Source: a virus (Duplodnaviria; Caudoviricetes). Taken from it: DNA of 25,834 nucleotides. The stretch covers positions 1 to 25,834 of IMG/VR virus record IMGVR_UViG_3300023283_000006, one strand, 5' to 3'. A program made the translations under genes and the position numbers. Shown one piece after another: positions 16,784-25,545 of this stretch (position 1 is its first letter; every line of letters begins with the position of its first letter). The notes under the pieces are model-generated. The model did no database searches. It saw only the letters and a program-made list of their open reading frames with translations, and was not told where the DNA came from.

Positions 16784-18382
16784 TTAACGTTCTCCTGGCG
16801 GTCGTGTATCTTGTGGCTCTCCCTCACAGCCATCTCTCTGCATAGCATTGATGATATCATCACGCGACACACCACGGACAAGCGAGGCAAAAGCATTCAC
16901 CGGCCGTGCGGTCGGACAGTTGATACCGCCATTGAGGATTTGGTTGATCGTCGAAGACGTGAGATTCGCTTCTTGGGCGATCTCTTCGACGATATCGGAT
17001 CGAGATCGGTCATCGGTGACCATGTCTTCGATCGCATTTTCGAGCAACGACGCGAGATTTTCTCCCTTAATCCGCTTTCCATCGACGACACAAAACCGCA
17101 TGTGTTCTTTGTGATCCGGCTGTTGCGAGACTGTGCCGACGTGACCGTCAAGAACAGCCTTGCTATAAAGATAGTCACCAAGCAGCCGTTCAGTACGACC
17201 ATGATCGTTGACCTGTTTCATCTCTGTCTCCAGCTCTTTTGCAACTTGATAAAGGTGTTCCACCACTGTTTCAAGCTCGTTAAGTTCGCCGATCCGATCG
17301 TCTGACAGCTTCTTTACCTGACGTGCGCGCTCAAGAGCCGTTTCTGCATCCCATGTCGCAAACGTGATCTGATCAGAGAGCTTCATGGCGCACTCGTCGT
17401 AGGATCGCAGATCCGGCACTTCCTCACCCGCATCGCGTAGGTGTTGAGCGAGGTGGCGATAAACGCCCTTGCGATCAGCTTCGGGGATGGTCGTCCCACC
17501 CCGCGCACCATTGAGCACAGCGATACCTGTACGTGCAGCCCTGATGCTCGCCGCGCCCGCGTTACCGTCGTCATCGACGAAATGGTGAAGGAAACGCCAC
17601 GCCGTCTTGTTGCCCGTCTGACCCTCGGGATCGCGCCAGGCATAGATACCCTGGTAGTAGCTCGCCGACTGCTCTTCAAGCACGCGGCGTTCATTTCGTG
17701 GTCCATCCCACGGCGCGCTCGACGTCTTGGTGGTGTGCGTGCCGACCGCGCGCTTGTCGCTCTTGATCGCCACTGTACCCGTGCCCATACCGGCACCAAG
17801 AACGACCGGCGAGACCTCGTGGACATTGAGCGCCCTCAACACCTGCACCGCTTGTCCCTCGCGCGTTTCGTGGTCGGCCTCCTTGATCGAGAATCCGTAG
17901 GACCACTCCTGCAAGGGCTGGCCGTGTTCGAGGTCGAAGCGCAGCGCCGAGTGCCAGTCGCGCCCGGCTTGTGTGTCGAGGTTGAGCTGGAAGTCGACCA
18001 GCGCCTGATCGCCTTCCTCACGCGTGATGCCCTTGCCGAGCGGCACGCTCGACCAGTCATGCGTCGGCAGGATTTTGACGTGCTGCTCGCCGAACGCGCC
18101 CGGCTCGGTGATATCGCCGTCGCTGTCGACAACGCCGAATGTCGCGAACACGGCCGTGCCGTGGCCGCGCTCGTCCATCTGCTTGATCCGGGCAGGCTTC
18201 AGCGCCTTCGTATCGTCCGCCATGGTATTGGCCTCGCTGTCTACGATCGTCGGGTCCTCCCAGATTCGCTCGCACAACGCTCTCGCCTGCGAGCCGTTCT
18301 CGGCGCTGCCTTCCTCGATCACATCGGGGATGCAACGGTTGATGAAGTCGTCGTGCTCTTCGTTGGCTCTGGGTCTTGGCAT
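16784..18382 (-). CDS. HK97-type prohead protease with N- and C-terminal extra domains
   Basis: Core aa ~60-207: VDSDGDI..PGAF, HDW (His108), EWSYGF (Ser161), HEVSPV. Total 532 aa. Confidence 0.9.
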   Translation of the reverse strand: MPRPRANEEHDDFINRCIPDVIEEGSAENGSQARALCERIWEDPTIVDSEANTMADDTKALKPARIKQMDERGHGTAVFATFGVVDSDGDITEPGAFGEQHVKILPTHDWSSVPLGKGITREEGDQALVDFQLNLDTQAGRDWHSALRFDLEHGQPLQEWSYGFSIKEADHETREGQAVQVLRALNVHEVSPVVLGAGMGTGTVAIKSDKRAVGTHTTKTSSAPWDGPRNERRVLEEQSASYYQGIYAWRDPEGQTGNKTAWRFLHHFVDDDGNAGAASIRAARTGIAVLNGARGGTTIPEADRKGVYRHLAQHLRDAGEEVPDLRSYDECAMKLSDQITFATWDAETALERARQVKKLSDDRIGELNELETVVEHLYQVAKELETEMKQVNDHGRTERLLGDYLYSKAVLDGHVGTVSQQPDHKEHMRFCVVDGKRIKGENLASLLENAIEDMVTDDRSRSDIVEEIAQEANLTSSTINQILNGGINCPTARPVNAFASLVRGVSRDDIINAMQRDGCEGEPQDTRPPGER

Positions 18383-18387
18383 ATATG

Positions 18388-20514
18388 CTATTCGATGATG
18401 GGCACCGCGTCACGCGTGCCGTTCGGGTGTTCGAGCGCCATCAGCTCTTCCGCTTCCTCGACCGATACCACGCGACCGTCGAGGTCCTGGCAGATGTCGT
18501 GGCTTGGGTCCACTGAGCTAAAGCCGGTGCGGTCGTCGAAGATCCGCATGCGCACGGACCCCTGGGAGCGCGCCATCTCGATCGACGAGGCGCGCTGGGC
18601 GTGCTTGGTCTCCGTCCGCGCGATCGTGCGTGCGCGCAGTTCTGCACTCGACCAGCGCCCCGCCGGGATGTCGTCGCGGATACGGCGAACTATGGCATCA
18701 ACGCCCTCACCCTCGGCGCGTGCGGTCTCCAGCGCACGGAACAGGCGATCGCGCGTCTGTGCATTCAGGTCGACCAGTCCGGCACGCCGCCCGCCGGTCG
18801 CAAGGATCGCTCGCTGTACCGGGTCGGGCAGGTCGGTCGCAAGGCCGAGCATGTCCATGTGCGCGGCCGTCGCGTTGGCAACCTCGAGATAGACCGCCTC
18901 GTAGATCTGGCGGTGAGTCTCGATAATGCCCTCCATGGCCATCGCCTGCATGATGCGCTCGACGATCGACTCGTCCTCGGCGGTCTGCTTGAAGCGTTCT
19001 TCAAGCACCGGCCCTGACGCCTCTACGGCACGCGCGCCCAGCGTGTTGGTCAGAAAGTCCATCAAACGCTCGCGCATCATGTCTTCGAGCCCCGGCAGGT
19101 CGGACTCCTGCGCGACCATGAACCGGCGCTGGCCCTCGGTCGCCTCGCGCCTTTCGCGCTCGGTCATGCGGTGCTCGAACGGCGTGTGATCACAGTCCTT
19201 GCGCCGGGCCTTGCTCTTGTCCTCATCATCACCGCCGTCATCGTCGCTACCACCACCGGCGGGCGCAGGACGTGAAGTCGGCCCCGATCGACCGATTGGC
19301 ACTGACAGGATGTTGAGACCGCGCAAATAGACATCGTCGCCATTCTCCGGCTCGATGCCCATCTCGCGCTTGGCCGCTGCAACAGTCATCCATCCCCCCT
19401 GCACGGCAGTATTTAGGCGTGTGACGAGCGCATTGCGGTCATCGGCGAGTGCTGCAACATCGGAGCGATCAAAGCGCACGCGCAGATTGTTCGACCGCCT
19501 GAACAGCGGCAACAGTGCATTGTTGATCTCGCCCTGGATGTTCTCCTGGATCGGGATGATGCCGTTGAGCCACGCCAGCTCGCGCATCTCGCCCATCGTC
19601 GCGCCGACCTTGGTCTGCTGTAGACCGGCGGAGAAACCGACGACAGCAGCGGGGATGCCGAGCAGAGCACAGACGCGTTCCTCGAAGCGATCCGTCGCGG
19701 CGGTCAGGTCCATCTCGCGTGGGGACCAAGACACGCGATCGACCTTGGTCTTGGCTGACGCCACCAGCGGCTTACCCCGATTGCTGCCACCGAACTCACG
19801 CTCGATGTAGTTCTTGAACTCCTGCATATCGTCCTCGCCGACTTCGACATCACCATCGGGCGAGATCACGAGCCCGGGCATGCCCTGGTTGCGCAGCATG
19901 GAGGCAATGAACTCCTCGGCCTCCATGTCCGCCCATATCGCACGGATGGCCGAATGCACGGGCGAGACACCCTTGCGCGGGTTGTGCGGATTAACGCCGT
20001 GGCGGATGTGGACGACATCGTCGACCTCAAGGCGCTTCTTCTCGCCGCCGACGCGGTACTCGTAGTGGCTAATGAACTCCGAGCCACCGTCCGGCCACTT
20101 CGGCGTCACCAGCCAGTGCGGCAGCCACCACAGGCGCGCGGGCTGGCCGGCACCATTGCGCACGATCGCCCAGTAGGCGTTACCGTCCGTGAGGTAGGAG
20201 AACACCGTGGCGTGCAGGAGATGGGCGCCGGAATAGTGCGGGTTCGGCCGTTCCAGAAGCTTTGCCGCTGCATGCTCGGGTACGATCTCGGCCTCGTCCC
20301 CACGCAGGCGATCGACGATCAGTGGCGCCTCGATGATAGCACGCTGCACCCACTGGATCGGCGCCATGAGCACCGACGACGACACGCCCGTGCCAACGCG
20401 CGAATGGTAGTCGAACTCGCCGCTATCGTGATCGCCGCCAGCGTGGAACAGCCGATACAGGTGGTGAACAGCGGAACTGGGATGAACCATCTCGCGCAGG
20501 CGCTTGAATCTCAC
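18388..20514 (-). CDS. HK97-family portal protein fused to a MuF / SPP1 gp7-like head morphogenesis domain
   Basis: Portal motifs LLERPNPHYS, GNAYW, VVHIRHG..P...KGVSP and LGIPAAVVG; C-terminal RARTIARTET...HDICQDLDG...EHPNG. GTG at 20514 overlaps the terL stop with GGAG upstream. Confidence 0.9.
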   Translation of the reverse strand: MRFKRLREMVHPSSAVHHLYRLFHAGGDHDSGEFDYHSRVGTGVSSSVLMAPIQWVQRAIIEAPLIVDRLRGDEAEIVPEHAAAKLLERPNPHYSGAHLLHATVFSYLTDGNAYWAIVRNGAGQPARLWWLPHWLVTPKWPDGGSEFISHYEYRVGGEKKRLEVDDVVHIRHGVNPHNPRKGVSPVHSAIRAIWADMEAEEFIASMLRNQGMPGLVISPDGDVEVGEDDMQEFKNYIEREFGGSNRGKPLVASAKTKVDRVSWSPREMDLTAATDRFEERVCALLGIPAAVVGFSAGLQQTKVGATMGEMRELAWLNGIIPIQENIQGEINNALLPLFRRSNNLRVRFDRSDVAALADDRNALVTRLNTAVQGGWMTVAAAKREMGIEPENGDDVYLRGLNILSVPIGRSGPTSRPAPAGGGSDDDGGDDEDKSKARRKDCDHTPFEHRMTERERREATEGQRRFMVAQESDLPGLEDMMRERLMDFLTNTLGARAVEASGPVLEERFKQTAEDESIVERIMQAMAMEGIIETHRQIYEAVYLEVANATAAHMDMLGLATDLPDPVQRAILATGGRRAGLVDLNAQTRDRLFRALETARAEGEGVDAIVRRIRDDIPAGRWSSAELRARTIARTETKHAQRASSIEMARSQGSVRMRIFDDRTGFSSVDPSHDICQDLDGRVVSVEEAEELMALEHPNGTRDAVPIIE

Positions 20515-21794
20515 AGGGGTCTCCAGCGTTGCTTTTGCTGCACCATCAGGTCCGTCATCGCCCACACAAACGCATCAAGGCGGTCAGGGCTGTCGCCGCT
20601 GCCGTCGTACGTGCACAGCTCGTCCTCGAGTTCGGGGTGGCTGCCATAGTGATGAACGCGCCCTTGCTCGGACAGTGCCGACACCGGCTCGGCTCGCGCG
20701 ATCTTGCCACGGCTGGCATGCACCATGCGAATCGGCAGATCCTTCGCCTCGCTCCTGAGGGTGTGAGAGACCATCTCGCCGCCCTGGTTTTTCTCAGCGA
20801 TCACCCGATCCGCCTCCCAGTCGTCGAATGCGCGATGGACTGCACGCGCCCACTGTGCGGGTGTACCCCGCATACTGTAGTCCGCCAATACCACACCATT
20901 ATCCGACGTGTCCACCCCGCAGACGACGATGCCGGTATGGTCAGCAGTCTCGGACGAGCTGCCCGCCGGGTCAACGCCGACCACAATGCGCCGCAGATCG
21001 GGTAGGTCAGTAATGCGTGCAGCCTCGATCTGCGCACGCGACCAGAGTGCGCCCTCGACATCTTCGAGCAGCTCGGCATCGAGTTCCTGGCGCCCAACCC
21101 GCGTGCCTTCATAGCGCGACATGATCTCGCGGCGGAACGTCGAGGACAGGTTGTCCAGGTTGTCCGCAGTACGCCCACGCGTGAGCACGACGTCCTTGCC
21201 CTCGCGAGCAACGAGATCGCGGATCAGCTTGATCGGCTTCGGCGTCGTCGTCACCAGCGCCCGAGCACGGCCTAGGCGCAGGCCGAACATGAGGTTATCC
21301 CAGGCATCCTGAGCGTGACGCCACACAGCCAGCTCATCGCACCAGGCAAATGCGTGCTGGGGTCCACGCAGGCGATCGGGCTCGTCAGCAGAGAACAGAG
21401 TAGCGCTCGCACCGTTCGGCCACACGACACGGCGCTTGGACGGCTCGTAGTGCGGGCGCTCACGCTGCGGGTAGATCGACAGCAAGCCCGACTCGCCCTC
21501 GACCATGGTGTCGCGTGCGTCCGCTGCGGTCGGTGCTACCAGTGCCACCCTGCGCGCGCCGGCATCGACGCGCTCGCGTATCCATTCGGCGCCAACGCGT
21601 GTCTTGCCCCAGCCCCGGCCGGCCATCGCTAGCCAGATCGACCACCACTGTCCATCGGGCTCGACCTGTTCGGGACGTGCCCACTCGCGCCATGCGCAAA
21701 GCAGGGCCTCGGCCTGCGATTCGGTGAGTCCATCGATCGCGCGCTGAATCTCTGCGGGATTGGCACCAGCCAGATCACGCAGGGCGGTCGTCAC
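20511..21794 (-). CDS. terL: Terminase large subunit
   Basis: Walker A GRGWGKT, LRGPQ...WCDE Walker B, TTTP coupling motif, nuclease VGVDPA and SPDRLDA. Confidence 0.96.
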   Translation of the reverse strand: MTTALRDLAGANPAEIQRAIDGLTESQAEALLCAWREWARPEQVEPDGQWWSIWLAMAGRGWGKTRVGAEWIRERVDAGARRVALVAPTAADARDTMVEGESGLLSIYPQRERPHYEPSKRRVVWPNGASATLFSADEPDRLRGPQHAFAWCDELAVWRHAQDAWDNLMFGLRLGRARALVTTTPKPIKLIRDLVAREGKDVVLTRGRTADNLDNLSSTFRREIMSRYEGTRVGRQELDAELLEDVEGALWSRAQIEAARITDLPDLRRIVVGVDPAGSSSETADHTGIVVCGVDTSDNGVVLADYSMRGTPAQWARAVHRAFDDWEADRVIAEKNQGGEMVSHTLRSEAKDLPIRMVHASRGKIARAEPVSALSEQGRVHHYGSHPELEDELCTYDGSGDSPDRLDAFVWAMTDLMVQQKQRWRPL

Positions 21795-22204
21795 GCTTCG
21801 TCCTCATCAGGGTCGTTCGGCCCCCCCGTAAGTCGCTTGAGCAGTTCGCTCTTGGCACCAGCTATCTCGATCGGTCCGCCTTCTGGTCCGCTGATTTCGT
21901 GCGCCTGCGTCTCGCGCCACCCCGCCTTGGTCTTGAGCCAGAATATCTGCGCTGCGGTGGTGTTGTGCTCGACGGCGTTCTTGTACAGCGATTGCGCCAC
22001 CTTGGCGTTTGCCTCTGCCGCCGCTGTGTCGATCTCTTGCCGAAAGTGTTTGGACAGGGTTTTGCGGTCCACGCCGATCACCTTGGCGATGTCCTCCAGC
22101 GGAACGCCATAGGCGACCATCGCGCGCACGGTGCGGCGCTGCTCGTCCGTCGGCTCAAATTGGGGGCGTCCGCCTTTGTTAGGCGCTCTCGTTTGCGATG
22201 TCAT
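21791..22204 (-). CDS. terS: Terminase small subunit
   Basis: GGRP, HTH (PLEDIAKVIGVDRKTLSKHF), AQIFWLKTKAGWRE and EISGPEGGPI; directly upstream of terL. Confidence 0.85.
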   Translation of the reverse strand: MTSQTRAPNKGGRPQFEPTDEQRRTVRAMVAYGVPLEDIAKVIGVDRKTLSKHFRQEIDTAAAEANAKVAQSLYKNAVEHNTTAAQIFWLKTKAGWRETQAHEISGPEGGPIEIAGAKSELLKRLTGGPNDPDEDEA

Positions 22205-23426
22205 CGAATTTCCGTCCGTCGCCTTCTAGGCTCGCCTGCTTGCCGGTGAAGCCCTGCCACCGCTTCACTATCACGTCGCAGTATGCCGGATCAAGCTCCA
22301 TACCATATACAGGTCGCCCCTCCTTCTCACCCGCGATCAACGTGGTCCCGCTGCCGAGGAACGGGTCATAAACCGGCTGACCGGGTGCGGAGTTGTTGAC
22401 GATCGGGCGTCGCATGCACTCGACAGGCTTCTGGGTGCTGTGGCCTGTCTCGGACTTCACCGGCTTGTCGATCTGCCAAAGCGTGCTTTCCTTACGGCTA
22501 CCCTGCCAATGGCCATTGTTCTTTACCGCATACCAACAGGGTTCGTGCATCCAATGGTAATGCCCCCGCCCTGGAACTAGCTTATGTTTTGCCCAAATGA
22601 TCTGCGCCCGAAGATCGAATCCGCATGCCTCAAGATTCGAAGCGACCAGCGGTGCGTTCATTGCACCATGCCAAACGTAAGCAACGTCGCCGGGAAATAA
22701 CGACCAAGCATCCGTCCAGTCTGCTCGGTCATCATAAGTAACCTTGCCTGTTGCGCGGCTACCGCTACCAACGCCGCCCTTCCCTGATTTATCACCGTTG
22801 CGCCAGTCCGCATCATAGTTCACCCCATACGGCGGATCCGTCACCATCAGGTGCGGCTGCACCCCGTTCAGCAGCGCCGCCACGTCGTCCGCGCTTGTGC
22901 TATCCCCGCAGTGGACACGGTGGTTGCCGAGCAGCCAGGTATCGCCCACCTCCGTTGTGGCCTTCTCCTGCGCTTCCGGCGCGTCGTCCTCGTCCGTAAG
23001 CCCTTCGCTGGCATCATTGAGCGCCAGCAGGCGCTCGATCTCGTCGTCCTCGAAGCCCATGACGCCGAGGTCGAAACCCTCGTCATTCAACGCCCCGAGT
23101 TCTAGGCCAAGCAGGTTGCTGTCCCACCCCGCGTTCTCAGCCAGCTTGTTATCAGCGATGATATAGGCGCGCTTCTGCTGGTCCGTTAGGTGCGACAATT
23201 CGATGCAAGGCACTGTGTCCGCGCCCAGCTTGCGCGCCGCCAGCACCCGCCCGTGTCCCGCGATAATCCCGTTCGCCCCGTCCACAAGCACCGGATTGGT
23301 CCAGCCAAACTCGCGGATGCTCGCAGCAATCTGCGCCAACTGTTCGTCCGAATGCGTGCGGGCGTTGTTCGCGTATGGAATCAGATCCGCAATCGCCCGC
23401 TGCTCGATGGTTTCGGGCTCGGTCAT
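22179..23426 (-). CDS. ParB-like N-terminal domain + beta-class N6A/N4C DNA methyltransferase
   Basis: LIPYANNARTH, IIAGHGR and ADNKLAE (ParB-N); DPPY precedes HSTQKP and DPFLGSGTT. Start taken at MTEPE (23426). Confidence 0.93.
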   Translation of the reverse strand: MTEPETIEQRAIADLIPYANNARTHSDEQLAQIAASIREFGWTNPVLVDGANGIIAGHGRVLAARKLGADTVPCIELSHLTDQQKRAYIIADNKLAENAGWDSNLLGLELGALNDEGFDLGVMGFEDDEIERLLALNDASEGLTDEDDAPEAQEKATTEVGDTWLLGNHRVHCGDSTSADDVAALLNGVQPHLMVTDPPYGVNYDADWRNGDKSGKGGVGSGSRATGKVTYDDRADWTDAWSLFPGDVAYVWHGAMNAPLVASNLEACGFDLRAQIIWAKHKLVPGRGHYHWMHEPCWYAVKNNGHWQGSRKESTLWQIDKPVKSETGHSTQKPVECMRRPIVNNSAPGQPVYDPFLGSGTTLIAGEKEGRPVYGMELDPAYCDVIVKRWQGFTGKQASLEGDGRKFDDIANESA

Positions 23427-23470: not shown

Positions 23471-23499
23471 AAAAAAAAGCCCGACACCAATGGCCGGGC
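23471..23499 (-). terminator. Rho-independent terminator
   Basis: GCCCGGC-cattggt-GTCGGGC followed by T8. Confidence 0.75.
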
Positions 23500-23594: not shown

Positions 23595-23759
23595 CTAGGG
23601 CGATGGCTGACGCAAGGACAGCCGCCACACGGTACGCGCGTGGCGCCGTGCGGACTCGCGATAGGCCTCGGGCACGTCGGCGAGCCTGCGCTGTACCTCG
23701 TCGGCATCCAGGGCGGCGGCCGGCTCGGTGAGCCAGGCGTTGTACTCGGCCTGGGTCAT
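23595..23759 (-). CDS. Hypothetical 54-aa protein
   Basis: ATG at 23759 overlaps the stop of the PAPS-reductase-like gene (ATGA); MTQAEYNAWLTEP... Confidence 0.5.
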   Translation of the reverse strand: MTQAEYNAWLTEPAAALDADEVQRRLADVPEAYRESARRHARTVWRLSLRQPSP

Positions 23760-24610
23760 AACGTGCAAGTCCGACAGGTGGACTGGCGAAACAGATCCAT
23801 CTGATCGGCGCCCTTGGGCACGTAGCCCAACTCGAACATGCGGCGCATGTCGCGCAGATAGGCCGGCCACGAGTCGCGGTGACAGGCCACATAGGTAAAG
23901 CCTGCCTTTTGCTTGAGCACGTGCACCTTGTTGCCGTCATCATCAAATCCAAACACCGGCATCCGGTAGGTATGACCGATCCGTGCTTCCTCGGCCTCCG
24001 CAGCGGCGAAATGGTCGGGATGATACTTCCACAGACGCCACCATTCACTGATAGTCTGATAAAAGCAGCGCCCACAGTCTGTGCGCTCCGGGATCTCGAC
24101 GCCGCGCTCATAGAGATAATTCATCACGTCGCCAATGGTCCAGCCCCAATCCTGCATCGGGTAGCGTTGCGTAACCCCGCCGGGCGCTGCGAGCGCGACA
24201 TCCGATCCGTGCTTGGCGAAATCCATGCCCTCTCGCCCTTTTTCGTCGACACGTAGTCCCACATATGACACTGCTGGCATGCAGTTGGCCAGATGGCGCT
24301 TATAGGGCTCAAGCTTGAGCTTGCGGGTACAGTGGCGGCGCTGGAAGTTCGGCAAGCAGGCCTCCTGGGCATTCGACGCCTCAAGGGTCTGGGTAACCAG
24401 CGGCACGATCGGCTGTTCCAGCAGCTCGGCCAGTCGCCGCCAATGGTCAAACATCTCCGGCAGCTCGTCGCCCGTCGGGGTGCAAACAAACTGGTAAAAC
24501 ATATCGGGATAGAGCTCGCGTAGGCGTAGTGCCATCGCTGTCGAGTCCTTGCCACCGGACAGCGACACGATGTGGGCATAGCCATCTGCGTCTCGGGTTG
24601 GTTCAAGCAT
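23756..24610 (-). CDS. PAPS-reductase-family PP-loop protein (DndC/SspD-like)
   Basis: VSLSGGKDSTAM PP-loop, TGDE, RHCTRKLKLEP, GLRVDE..R, YPMQDWGW, RTDCGRC and terminal CRTC. Confidence 0.88.
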   Translation of the reverse strand: MLEPTRDADGYAHIVSLSGGKDSTAMALRLRELYPDMFYQFVCTPTGDELPEMFDHWRRLAELLEQPIVPLVTQTLEASNAQEACLPNFQRRHCTRKLKLEPYKRHLANCMPAVSYVGLRVDEKGREGMDFAKHGSDVALAAPGGVTQRYPMQDWGWTIGDVMNYLYERGVEIPERTDCGRCFYQTISEWWRLWKYHPDHFAAAEAEEARIGHTYRMPVFGFDDDGNKVHVLKQKAGFTYVACHRDSWPAYLRDMRRMFELGYVPKGADQMDLFRQSTCRTCTL

Positions 24611-24666: not shown

Positions 24667-24855
24667 TCATGGCGCCCTGACAATCTCGATGACGCTATCG
24701 GCCCTGGCCCCGTCGACGGGCTCGACCGCGAGCGTATTGCCGAGGACGACGAGCGCATGGTCGAGTCCGGTATCGTCTGCCGCACGTTCGGCCCGTTGCA
24801 GCATCCAGAGGATGTGTTCGCGGGTGAGGTCGGTCATGGAGTGTCCGTCAGTCAC
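24667..24855 (-). CDS. Hypothetical 56-62 aa protein
   Basis: Overlaps the HTH gene stop; alternative ATG (MTDLTRE) has a GGA upstream. Confidence 0.5.
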   Translation of the reverse strand: MTDGHSMTDLTREHILWMLQRAERAADDTGLDHALVVLGNTLAVEPVDGARADSVIEIVRAP

Positions 24856-25081
24856 TGCGCTTGCTCTGTGTCTGCGCCATCACGCGATCGCGCTGCGCCC
24901 ACGGATCCTCGTCATACTCCGCCAGCCGCATCCGGATCAGGTCGGCCCGGTCGGCGGTGATCGAGCGCTCGCCGTTGAGCAACCGCCAGAGCATGGTGCG
25001 GTCGATGCGCAGAACGCGGGCCGAGTCTTTGGTGCGCAGGCCGCGCGCGTCGAGCAGGGATTGGAGGTCGCTGGGAGTCAT
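24848..25081 (-). CDS. Cro/XRE-like helix-turn-helix protein
   Basis: LDARGLRTKDSARVLRIDRTMLWRLLNGERSIT; ATGA coupling to the upstream ORF. Confidence 0.75.
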   Translation of the reverse strand: MTPSDLQSLLDARGLRTKDSARVLRIDRTMLWRLLNGERSITADRADLIRMRLAEYDEDPWAQRDRVMAQTQSKRSD

Positions 25082-25206
25082 TCTTCTTTTTCCGCCTTCT
25101 GGGCCAGTTCACGACACTCCGCTATCGTGTAACGCCGCCCGGTTGAGCCATCGCGCAACACTGTCGCATATCGGGATCGCCGACACTTTCCTCCAGCCGT
25201 CGCCAT
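25078..25206 (-). CDS. Hypothetical 42-aa protein (absent from ORF track)
   Basis: MATAGGKCRRSRYATVLRDGSTGRRYTIAECRELAQKAEKEE; starts 2 nt after the upstream stop, and its TGA overlaps the HTH start. Confidence 0.5.
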   Translation of the reverse strand: MATAGGKCRRSRYATVLRDGSTGRRYTIAECRELAQKAEKEE

Positions 25207-25208
25207 CA

Positions 25209-25427
25209 CTACCATTCACCGCGCTTGATCTGACGCTCGATCATTTCCTCGACCAGGTTGGACACTTCGAGCTCGACATCTTCCTCGGCCTCGGCGTGTT
25301 TTCCGGTAACCCGGCTGATGGTGTAGCCGCCAAATGGTGCGTTTTTATCCATCATGCGGCATGCGGCGCTGTAGATGGTGCGATGGCCGCGTTCATGTCC
25401 GCCTGCGATGTTGGTTGTGTAGATCAT
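25209..25427 (-). CDS. Hypothetical 72-aa protein
   Basis: ATG at 25427 with GGAGG SD, first gene after the promoter; acidic C-terminal helix. Confidence 0.65.
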   Translation of the reverse strand: MIYTTNIAGGHERGHRTIYSAACRMMDKNAPFGGYTISRVTGKHAEAEEDVELEVSNLVEEMIERQIKRGEW

Positions 25428-25465
25428 TTCCAGCCCTCCGGGTGCTTTCGTTGACTGCGGGGACC

Positions 25466-25493
25466 ATTCTACAGATGCAGTTGCCCGAGTCAA
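25466..25493 (-). promoter_or_regulatory. Sigma70-type promoter
   Basis: TTGACT (25493-25488), 16-bp spacer, TAGAAT (25471-25466), about 40 nt upstream of an SD-bearing ORF. Confidence 0.65.
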
Positions 25494-25511
25494 CCCCTGT
25501 CCAGCCCGATT

Positions 25512-25545
25512 TCTATTTACAAAATACTGATGTCGTGTAAATAGA
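25512..25545. repeat. 34-bp inverted repeat with 10-bp perfect arms
   Basis: TCTATTTACA-N14-TGTAAATAGA in AT-rich intergenic DNA. Confidence 0.85.

Follow-up and report, generated by a model that had tools for sequence, protein, structure and literature searches.

The window, by which we mean the whole stretch of 25,834 nucleotides that was analyzed, is an entire linear virus record of ~61% completeness, and its minus strand encodes at 23756-24610 a stand-alone PP-loop enzyme of 284 residues (P0001) whose clade, judged by profiles, alignments and trees, is the sister of SspD. We propose that P0001 would introduce phosphorothioate into phage DNA for counter-defense, fed with sulfur by the IscS of the host and tethered to the beta-clamp by a motif in its tail, and we give this chain as a whole a probability of about 0.5. 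By analogy, the P0001 clade is predicted to work like SspD and PptA. Viral "PAPS reductases" are routinely tallied as sulfur-metabolism genes, and this clade would be better read as a DNA-marking counter-defense. Because these nearest kin of SspD found here are without SspB and SspC, they also represent a minimal system for the entry of sulfur into the DNA backbone and for the role of the ATPase partner.

The general idea is already known, as it has been proposed (available sections of PMC13551039), is hinted at by a Vibrio PAPS-Dam fusion and is apparently realized in a PptA-IscS structure. New here are the placement of the phage clade as sister to SspD, the link to PptA-IscS, the counts of the clamp-type motif across clades and the observation that this motif was never found beside a phage polymerase.

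The Gene Product and Its Conserved Motifs

P0001 contains the PP-loop SGGKDS (residues 18-23; 24542-24559, minus strand), a predicted ATP-pyrophosphatase site in which S18, D22, and S23 are retained in 120/120 aligned homologs. Its RxCT sequence (24326-24337, minus strand) holds C94, the sole cysteine of RHCTRKLK and a predicted cluster ligand, which aligns to the CC of APS reductase. The central CxxC (CGRC, C179/C182; 24065-24076, minus strand) is likewise predicted to provide cluster ligands and aligns with the CxxC of APS reductase, SspD, and PptA, so that three of the four cluster cysteine positions of APS reductase are retained. The protein ends in TCRTCTL, whose CxxC (C279/C282; 23765-23776, minus strand) is a predicted sulfur-relay or metal site that recurs in all 120 homologs; SspD also has CxxC at this end, and PptA has CxxxC. 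The beta-clamp-type sequence QMDLF (residues 270-274; 23789-23803, minus strand) lies shortly before it in a tail that is modeled with low confidence. These motifs had all been listed in an earlier note on this DNA, and each was confirmed in the ORF. The same is true of the reported absence of ECG(L/I)H, the C-terminal catalytic tail of CysH, as E. coli CysH and a Bosea APS-reductase-type protein both end in ECGLH in the same alignment.

The homolog set comprised 2,391 matches at E ≤ 0.001, and the alignment counts given here refer to the best 120 of these. All five cysteines (C94, C179, C182, C279, and C282) are invariant in the 120 aligned homologs. A beta-hairpin insertion of 25 residues (~220-244; 23879-23953, minus strand) is missing in ~106/120 and is dispensable across the family.

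The AlphaFold model of P0001 (pLDDT 91.8 overall; 56 and 41 for residues 271-284) has the PP-loop fold, with reductases and Fe-S thiolases matching it about equally in Foldseek and VIA. The best matches by VIA were PAPS/APS reductases (Z 14.9 to PAPS reductase), and the tRNA thiolases NcsA and TtuA, together with LarE, matched the model about as well (TM ~0.4, Z 11-13). Fold searches thus do not separate reductases from thiolases.

Relationship to SspD, DndC, and CysH

Database labels for P0001 are those of a reductase (Pfam PAPS_reduct, E 8e-10; PHROGs phrog_424). The top PADLOC family, however, was SspD (E 5e-39), although P0001 scored 133 bits against this profile vs. 304-388 bits for four proteins of the SspD clade, and neither the PADLOC DndC nor the NCBIfam CysH family matched P0001 at E ≤ 0.1. 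With HHalign, P0001 aligned over its full length to an operon-borne SspD (99.9%, E 1e-34) with all five cysteines aligned, to DndC at 97% through the N-terminal 160 residues only, and to an APS-reductase-type protein with 2.8% probability.

A careful tree had 41 rows, with DndC represented by only two, one of them partial, and BrxP and TdpC left out; a search for BrxP in 151 genomes found none. In this tree, monophyly is supported at 100/99 for both the phage clade and SspD and their sisterhood at 97/96, and the two together lie among further stand-alone phage clades (99/98). A branch of 100/98 parts the phage clades, SspD and DndC from CysH, APS reductase and CysD. DndC falls outside the group of phage proteins and SspD both here and in a second tree with PptA relatives added, in which the sisterhood of the phage clade and SspD decreases to 89/86. 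The P0001 clade is thus best placed as a sister to SspD, inside neither the SspD nor the PptA clade, and is the closest relative of SspD found here. The view of the earlier note that P0001 is a PP-loop, cysteine-rich relative of the phosphorothioation enzymes is therefore supported, with the DndC/SspD-like description narrowed to SspD, for which the profile and full-length alignments are strong, as against DndC; its contention that this is not a CysH of sulfate assimilation is borne out by the lack of ECG(L/I)H and of the CC, by the 100/98 branch and by the HHalign result.

P0001 and SspD share a size class, SGGKDS, an RWCT-type cysteine, a central CxxC and a C-terminal CxxC. SspD differs in that it is operon-borne with an acidic tail that is without the clamp motif, whereas P0001 is stand-alone and carries QMDLF. 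DndC resembles P0001 in the PP-loop and N-terminal region, and is described as having RWCT, a three-cysteine [4Fe-4S] cluster and a sulfur-receiving cysteine pair (sections of PMC10853773); it is distinguished by its length of at least 409 residues and its need for DndD/E. CysH PAPS/APS reductases are similar in fold, Pfam family and the three shared cysteine positions, but have their own clade and gene context in addition to the catalytic tail and, in APS reductase, the CC.

In GTDB genomes, a scan first gave 10 close matches of full-length type, followed by 70 loci (L092-L161), mostly true Ssp operons, with an SspC-like neighbor in 61/70, an SspB-like neighbor in 57/70 and a desulfurase in 45/70. 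As a separate observation, an IMG/VR contig labeled viral (L046) carries a true SspD with SspC-like and SspB-like neighbors, an apparently full Ssp module.

A Clamp-Type Motif in the C-Terminal Tail

The beta-clamp consensus QL(S/D)LF, a pentapeptide located near the C-terminus, is described as variable (PMC9690074, in part). We scored a strict pattern (Q-x-[S/D]-[L/M]-F) and a broad one (Qxx[LM][FL]) in the 22 residues that precede the last CxxC. The strict motif occurred in the tails of 46 of the 120 close homologs, compared to a mean of 0.12 (maximum 2) in shuffled tails, and the broad motif in 63, compared to 1.8 (maximum 8), while the strict pattern occurred 0 times in the remaining 26,916 residues of these homologs. 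Variants included QLDLF, QLSLF, QLELF, and QIDMF, with 4-8 residues between the end of the motif and the CxxC. The clamp-type motif is therefore real, above chance and repeatedly conserved. Even under the broad pattern, it is missing in 57/120 close homologs, and it occurred in 0/70 SspD proteins and 0/68 distinct relatives in the PptA clade.

The tail recurs beyond the close homologs. In a distant phage clade with a score of just 14.5 bits on the profile, a motif followed by CxxC was found in 22/34 tails by the strict pattern (0.04 in shuffles) and in 29/34 by the broad one, the 34 being counted after one locus with a frame break was dropped. Members of this clade (L178:1285-2154 and L316-L350) have ECMCG instead of CxxC and no equivalent of C94. 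As they share the same tail without this cysteine, the clamp-type tail does not fix the chemistry, and the clade possibly represents a different chemistry on the same tail. Another phage clade (L047, L049, L052, and L076) has no terminal CxxC, and these members end in the clamp-type pentapeptides QMSLF, QICLF, QLTIW, and QGDLF.

Among 50 IMG/VR virus records that carry the gene, the motif was present in 8 and missing in 42. Twenty of these records have a polymerase of their own (18 of family A and 2 of phrog_1252); PolB and DnaE searches of the 32 PolA-negative records gave no match over the cut-off, and phrog_1252 added the 2. The motif accompanied an own polymerase in 0/20 records vs. 8/30 records without one (Fisher p = 0.015, kinship ignored), and in records at least 85% complete the counts were 0/13 vs. 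5/15 (p = 0.044). Of the 30 polymerase-less records, 17 are less than 90% complete and 22 are also without the motif. Six metagenome loci with a polymerase nearby (five by BLAST, one by PHROGs) were likewise all without the motif. A test corrected for kinship had only 3-4 independent pairs, giving no signal and having no power. The relation between motif and polymerase is drawn from these other carriers, as the record of this phage has no recognized replication module.

The statement in the earlier note that QMDLF fits the clamp consensus thus stands, and is strengthened by its conservation above chance, but only with the qualification that the feature is variable: the terminal CxxC is universal in the close homologs and the QxDLF-type motif is found in a minority by the strict pattern. 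Since roughly half of the close homologs and most IMG/VR carriers do without the motif, coupling to the clamp is optional. Its distribution fits dependence on the host replisome, with docking on DnaN predicted from the motif. Modeling of residues 245-284 against E. coli DnaN scored 0.00 in two runs with no folded controls, a score that weighs neither for nor against binding. Clamp use by phage Mu has reportedly been the subject of one study, and our literature searches found none on a clamp motif in a sulfur enzyme of this kind.

These counts bear directly on the most durable alternative, that P0001 is a phosphorothioation-type enzyme which finds DNA unaided and that its clamp motif is incidental or serves some other partner. 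This would explain why so many close homologs, 42 carriers and the whole PptA clade do without the motif, and it accords with the lack of signal in the kinship-corrected pairs. It does not account well for variation that is exactly clamp-like and held at a short distance from the CxxC, for recurrence of the motif in a clade as remote as that at 14.5 bits, or for its absence from all of the 20 viral records and 6 metagenome loci that have a phage polymerase. We regard this alternative as unlikely, while allowing it some weight.

PptA as a Precedent

A profile of the phage clade matched PDB chain 21fy_C, which is named PptA, at E 1.7e-6, and for a broader family profile PptA (21fy) was the best PDB match (E 6.7e-23 vs. 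1.2e-10 for CysH). PptA was reached by profiles only: single-sequence PDB searches with P0001 and with two distant phage homologs gave 0 matches each, and 21fy was not among the Foldseek and VIA matches (copies ending April 2026). Entry 21fy also contains E. coli IscS. Relatives of PptA are frequent in viral contigs and in named phages; a search of 9 of the 64 parts of IMG/VR for the PptA motif yielded 120 viral stretches, and one viral PptA-like protein, at E 2e-76 to PptA, matched 31 phage records. We estimate ~900 stretches with the PptA-type clade (L351-L430), which has an FSCGAxS-type loop and a C-terminal CxxxC. Our literature search for PptA found no relevant paper, and it is from the name, partner and relatives of the protein that we infer PptA to be a phage phosphorothioation enzyme. 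Since 21fy holds IscS and the relatives of PptA are phage genes, a stand-alone, IscS-fed phage enzyme would already be on record. PptA is like P0001 in having the same domain, the same layout of five cysteines and phage-borne relatives, and unlike it in belonging to a separate long-branch clade, in its PP-loop type and in the spacing of its terminal cysteines.

The PptA relatives are also relevant to a second alternative, in which the enzyme uses ATP to modify DNA or RNA in some other way (by making a thio-base, by a stable adenylation or by thiolating tRNA) and makes no backbone phosphorothioate. Such an activity would be compatible with the equally good fold matches to NcsA, TtuA, and LarE and with the distant clade that shares the tail and lacks C94, and the methyltransferase-type neighborhoods described below would suit any DNA mark. 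Yet SspD is the nearest characterized kin of P0001 by both sequence and tree, and in the tree with PptA relatives added the PptA clade, SspD and the phage clades group apart from DndC and CysH (95/94), leading us to consider an activity other than phosphorothioation as doubtful, and somewhat more so than an incidental motif.

Partners and Genomic Neighborhoods of the Carriers

Dnd, Ssp, and BREX-4 systems are each described as requiring an ATPase/NTPase partner, and phosphorothioate as undetectable in gut isolates that carry a PAPS-reductase gene without the proper set of partners (both in the available sections of PMC12914056), which speaks against phosphorothioation by P0001 alone. The claim that P0001 is stand-alone agrees with our searches. 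PADLOC found no Dnd or Ssp gene among the 10 large proteins of the window, SspC was found neither in this record nor in any of the 50 carrier records (of which 26 reach 90% completeness or more), and in the same 50 records there was no cysteine desulfurase; as a positive control, the SspC search recovers known Ssp genomes. There was no fixed partner gene in 45 viral loci plus the window, the commonest real neighbor family occurring in 19/46, and SspB was not a recurring neighbor.

The genes around the carriers encode polymerase, primase, helicase, exonuclease, recombination, methyltransferase and terminase proteins, and in many carriers the gene overlaps that of the polymerase and precedes that of the primase. 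Methyltransferases were neighbors in 9/25 and 16/58 loci (hand-picked ORFs with no background control), and a motif-like stretch was seen in 1 of 12 methyltransferases checked. Some carriers have a second, different PAPS-reductase-like gene within 2 kb of the first (L193:5978-6772 and L286:7514-8884), which in L286 adjoins a ParB-like gene.

These neighborhoods and the known phage examples also bear on the possibility that P0001 modifies nothing and is an inhibitor, competing with host SspD or DndC for IscS or SspBC, or jamming the clamp. In favor of this, a two-gene region with a PAPS-Dam fusion enables a Vibrio phage to escape Dnd, with no measurement of modification in the available text (bioRxiv 10.1101/2021.05.05.442762), and the possible HTH-controlled early unit of our phage resembles anti-defense operons (PMC13551039, in part). 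The Vibrio protein (phage 44E38.1 p0018) resembles P0001 in being a phage-encoded PAPS-reductase-like domain, and has been associated with escape from phosphorothioate defense; it differs in being fused to Dam, and is likened here by description and not by sequence. A decoy, however, would not need a PP-loop and five cysteines that are invariant in 120/120 homologs, nor would it be expected inside replication operons, between polymerase and primase, as in many carriers, and we judge inhibition without modification to be improbable. A role as an auxiliary metabolic CysH (PAPS/APS reductase) enhancing sulfate assimilation in the host, which the Pfam and phrog_424 labels and the top fold matches would suggest, is highly improbable given the features that separate P0001 from CysH in motif, tree, HHalign and NCBIfam comparisons, and no sulfate-assimilation annotation was present among the PHROGs matches of the neighbors.

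A Proposed Mechanism

For the clamp-tethered, IscS-fed phosphorothioation that we favor, the following sequence of events can be envisaged. By analogy to DndC and TtuA-type thiolases, C94, C179, and C182 would bind a [4Fe-4S] cluster through three cysteines, leaving one iron open. Host IscS would give the sulfur, as suggested by the PptA-IscS entry, perhaps via the flexible C279/C282 pair. The PP-loop and ATP would adenylate a backbone phosphate, and sulfur would then displace AMP, as in Tdp, where the phosphate is reportedly adenylated before this displacement. QMDLF would dock on DnaN and, in phages whose DNA is replicated by the host replisome, take over the targeting role of SspB/SspC. The resulting sulfur mark would disguise phage DNA as self in the face of phosphorothioate-based defense, or would block nucleases. 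Through its clamp tail the enzyme would couple the mark to replication, and the literature searched gave no report of such coupling in phosphorothioation.

There is a precedent for phosphorothioation by a single gene: tdpC alone is described as enough for phosphorothioate, and an adenylated intermediate is reported (PMC12914056, in the sections available). TdpC differs from P0001 in being cellular and paired with TdpAB, and the two are likened by description, not by sequence. Phage PAPS reductases have been proposed as DndC/SspD homologs repurposed against restriction or phosphorothioate defense, and reductase-like genes have been seen in Aca-controlled anti-defense operons (both PMC13551039, in part). 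The Vibrio PAPS-Dam region, with its escape from Dnd, also counts toward phosphorothioation as counter-defense. Such genes are noted as frequent in mobile elements and unexplained (parts of PMC11437467), and general background is available in portions of PMC12707154, PMC8569181, and PMC12839542.

We also advance, more tentatively and at less than even odds, a wider scenario in which the phage clade is a one-protein phosphorothioation writer that uses host IscS and DnaN, its clamp tail being gained or dropped according to whether the phage relies on the host replisome or on its own polymerase. In this scenario, bacterial defense may have captured the same module as SspD and exchanged the clamp for SspB/SspC, and many viral genes now labeled "cysH auxiliary metabolic genes" would serve counter-defense by marking DNA.

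The Local Gene Unit and Its Surroundings

All of the features described in this section are on the minus strand. Downstream, a 54-residue ORF (23595-23759), for which no family was found, overlaps the stop codon of the P0001 gene (ATGA), and is followed by a terminator-like hairpin with a T run (23479-23499), a pattern match only, of a type whose count is at chance level. Upstream on the same strand is a 77-residue HTH protein (24848-25081) with weak similarity to HigA/HTH_31 (E 5e-4 to 4e-3), a possible regulator of the unit. A sigma70-like promoter (10/12), together with a perfect inverted repeat of 10 bp that immediately precedes its -35 box, lies at 25466-25545 (one such promoter found, 1.0 expected by chance) and would let host RNA polymerase transcribe the unit. 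A second repeat of 7 bp spans the -35 box, and the promoter is followed by a small ORF and then by the HTH gene. The region 24848-25545 resembles a self-regulated early unit, comparable to the Aca-controlled operons with reductase-like genes. If real, the segment from promoter to hairpin would stand as a short unit of its own, apart from the ParB-methyltransferase and terminase genes that follow.

The methyltransferase that had been pointed out two genes away is indeed there, on the downstream side, as a ParB-N plus N6/N4 methyltransferase fusion (phrog_498; 22179-23426), but its relevance is questionable, with the hairpin in between and the gene placed directly before that of the small terminase; it probably belongs to the packaging unit. 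A functional pairing with P0001 was rejected as weak, given this terminator-like site, the single motif-like stretch among 12 methyltransferases and the uncontrolled neighbor counts. Scans for tRNAs and repeats gave nothing relevant.

Pfam matches elsewhere in the window were to terminase, portal, prohead protease and lysis genes. The prohead protease (16784-18382) has its S78 domain at residues 89-203 and is unusually long, with ~330 extra residues and a weak HTH match near its end. The 725-residue portal protein (18388-20565) has a weak C-terminal match to the Mu gpF head-morphogenesis domain.
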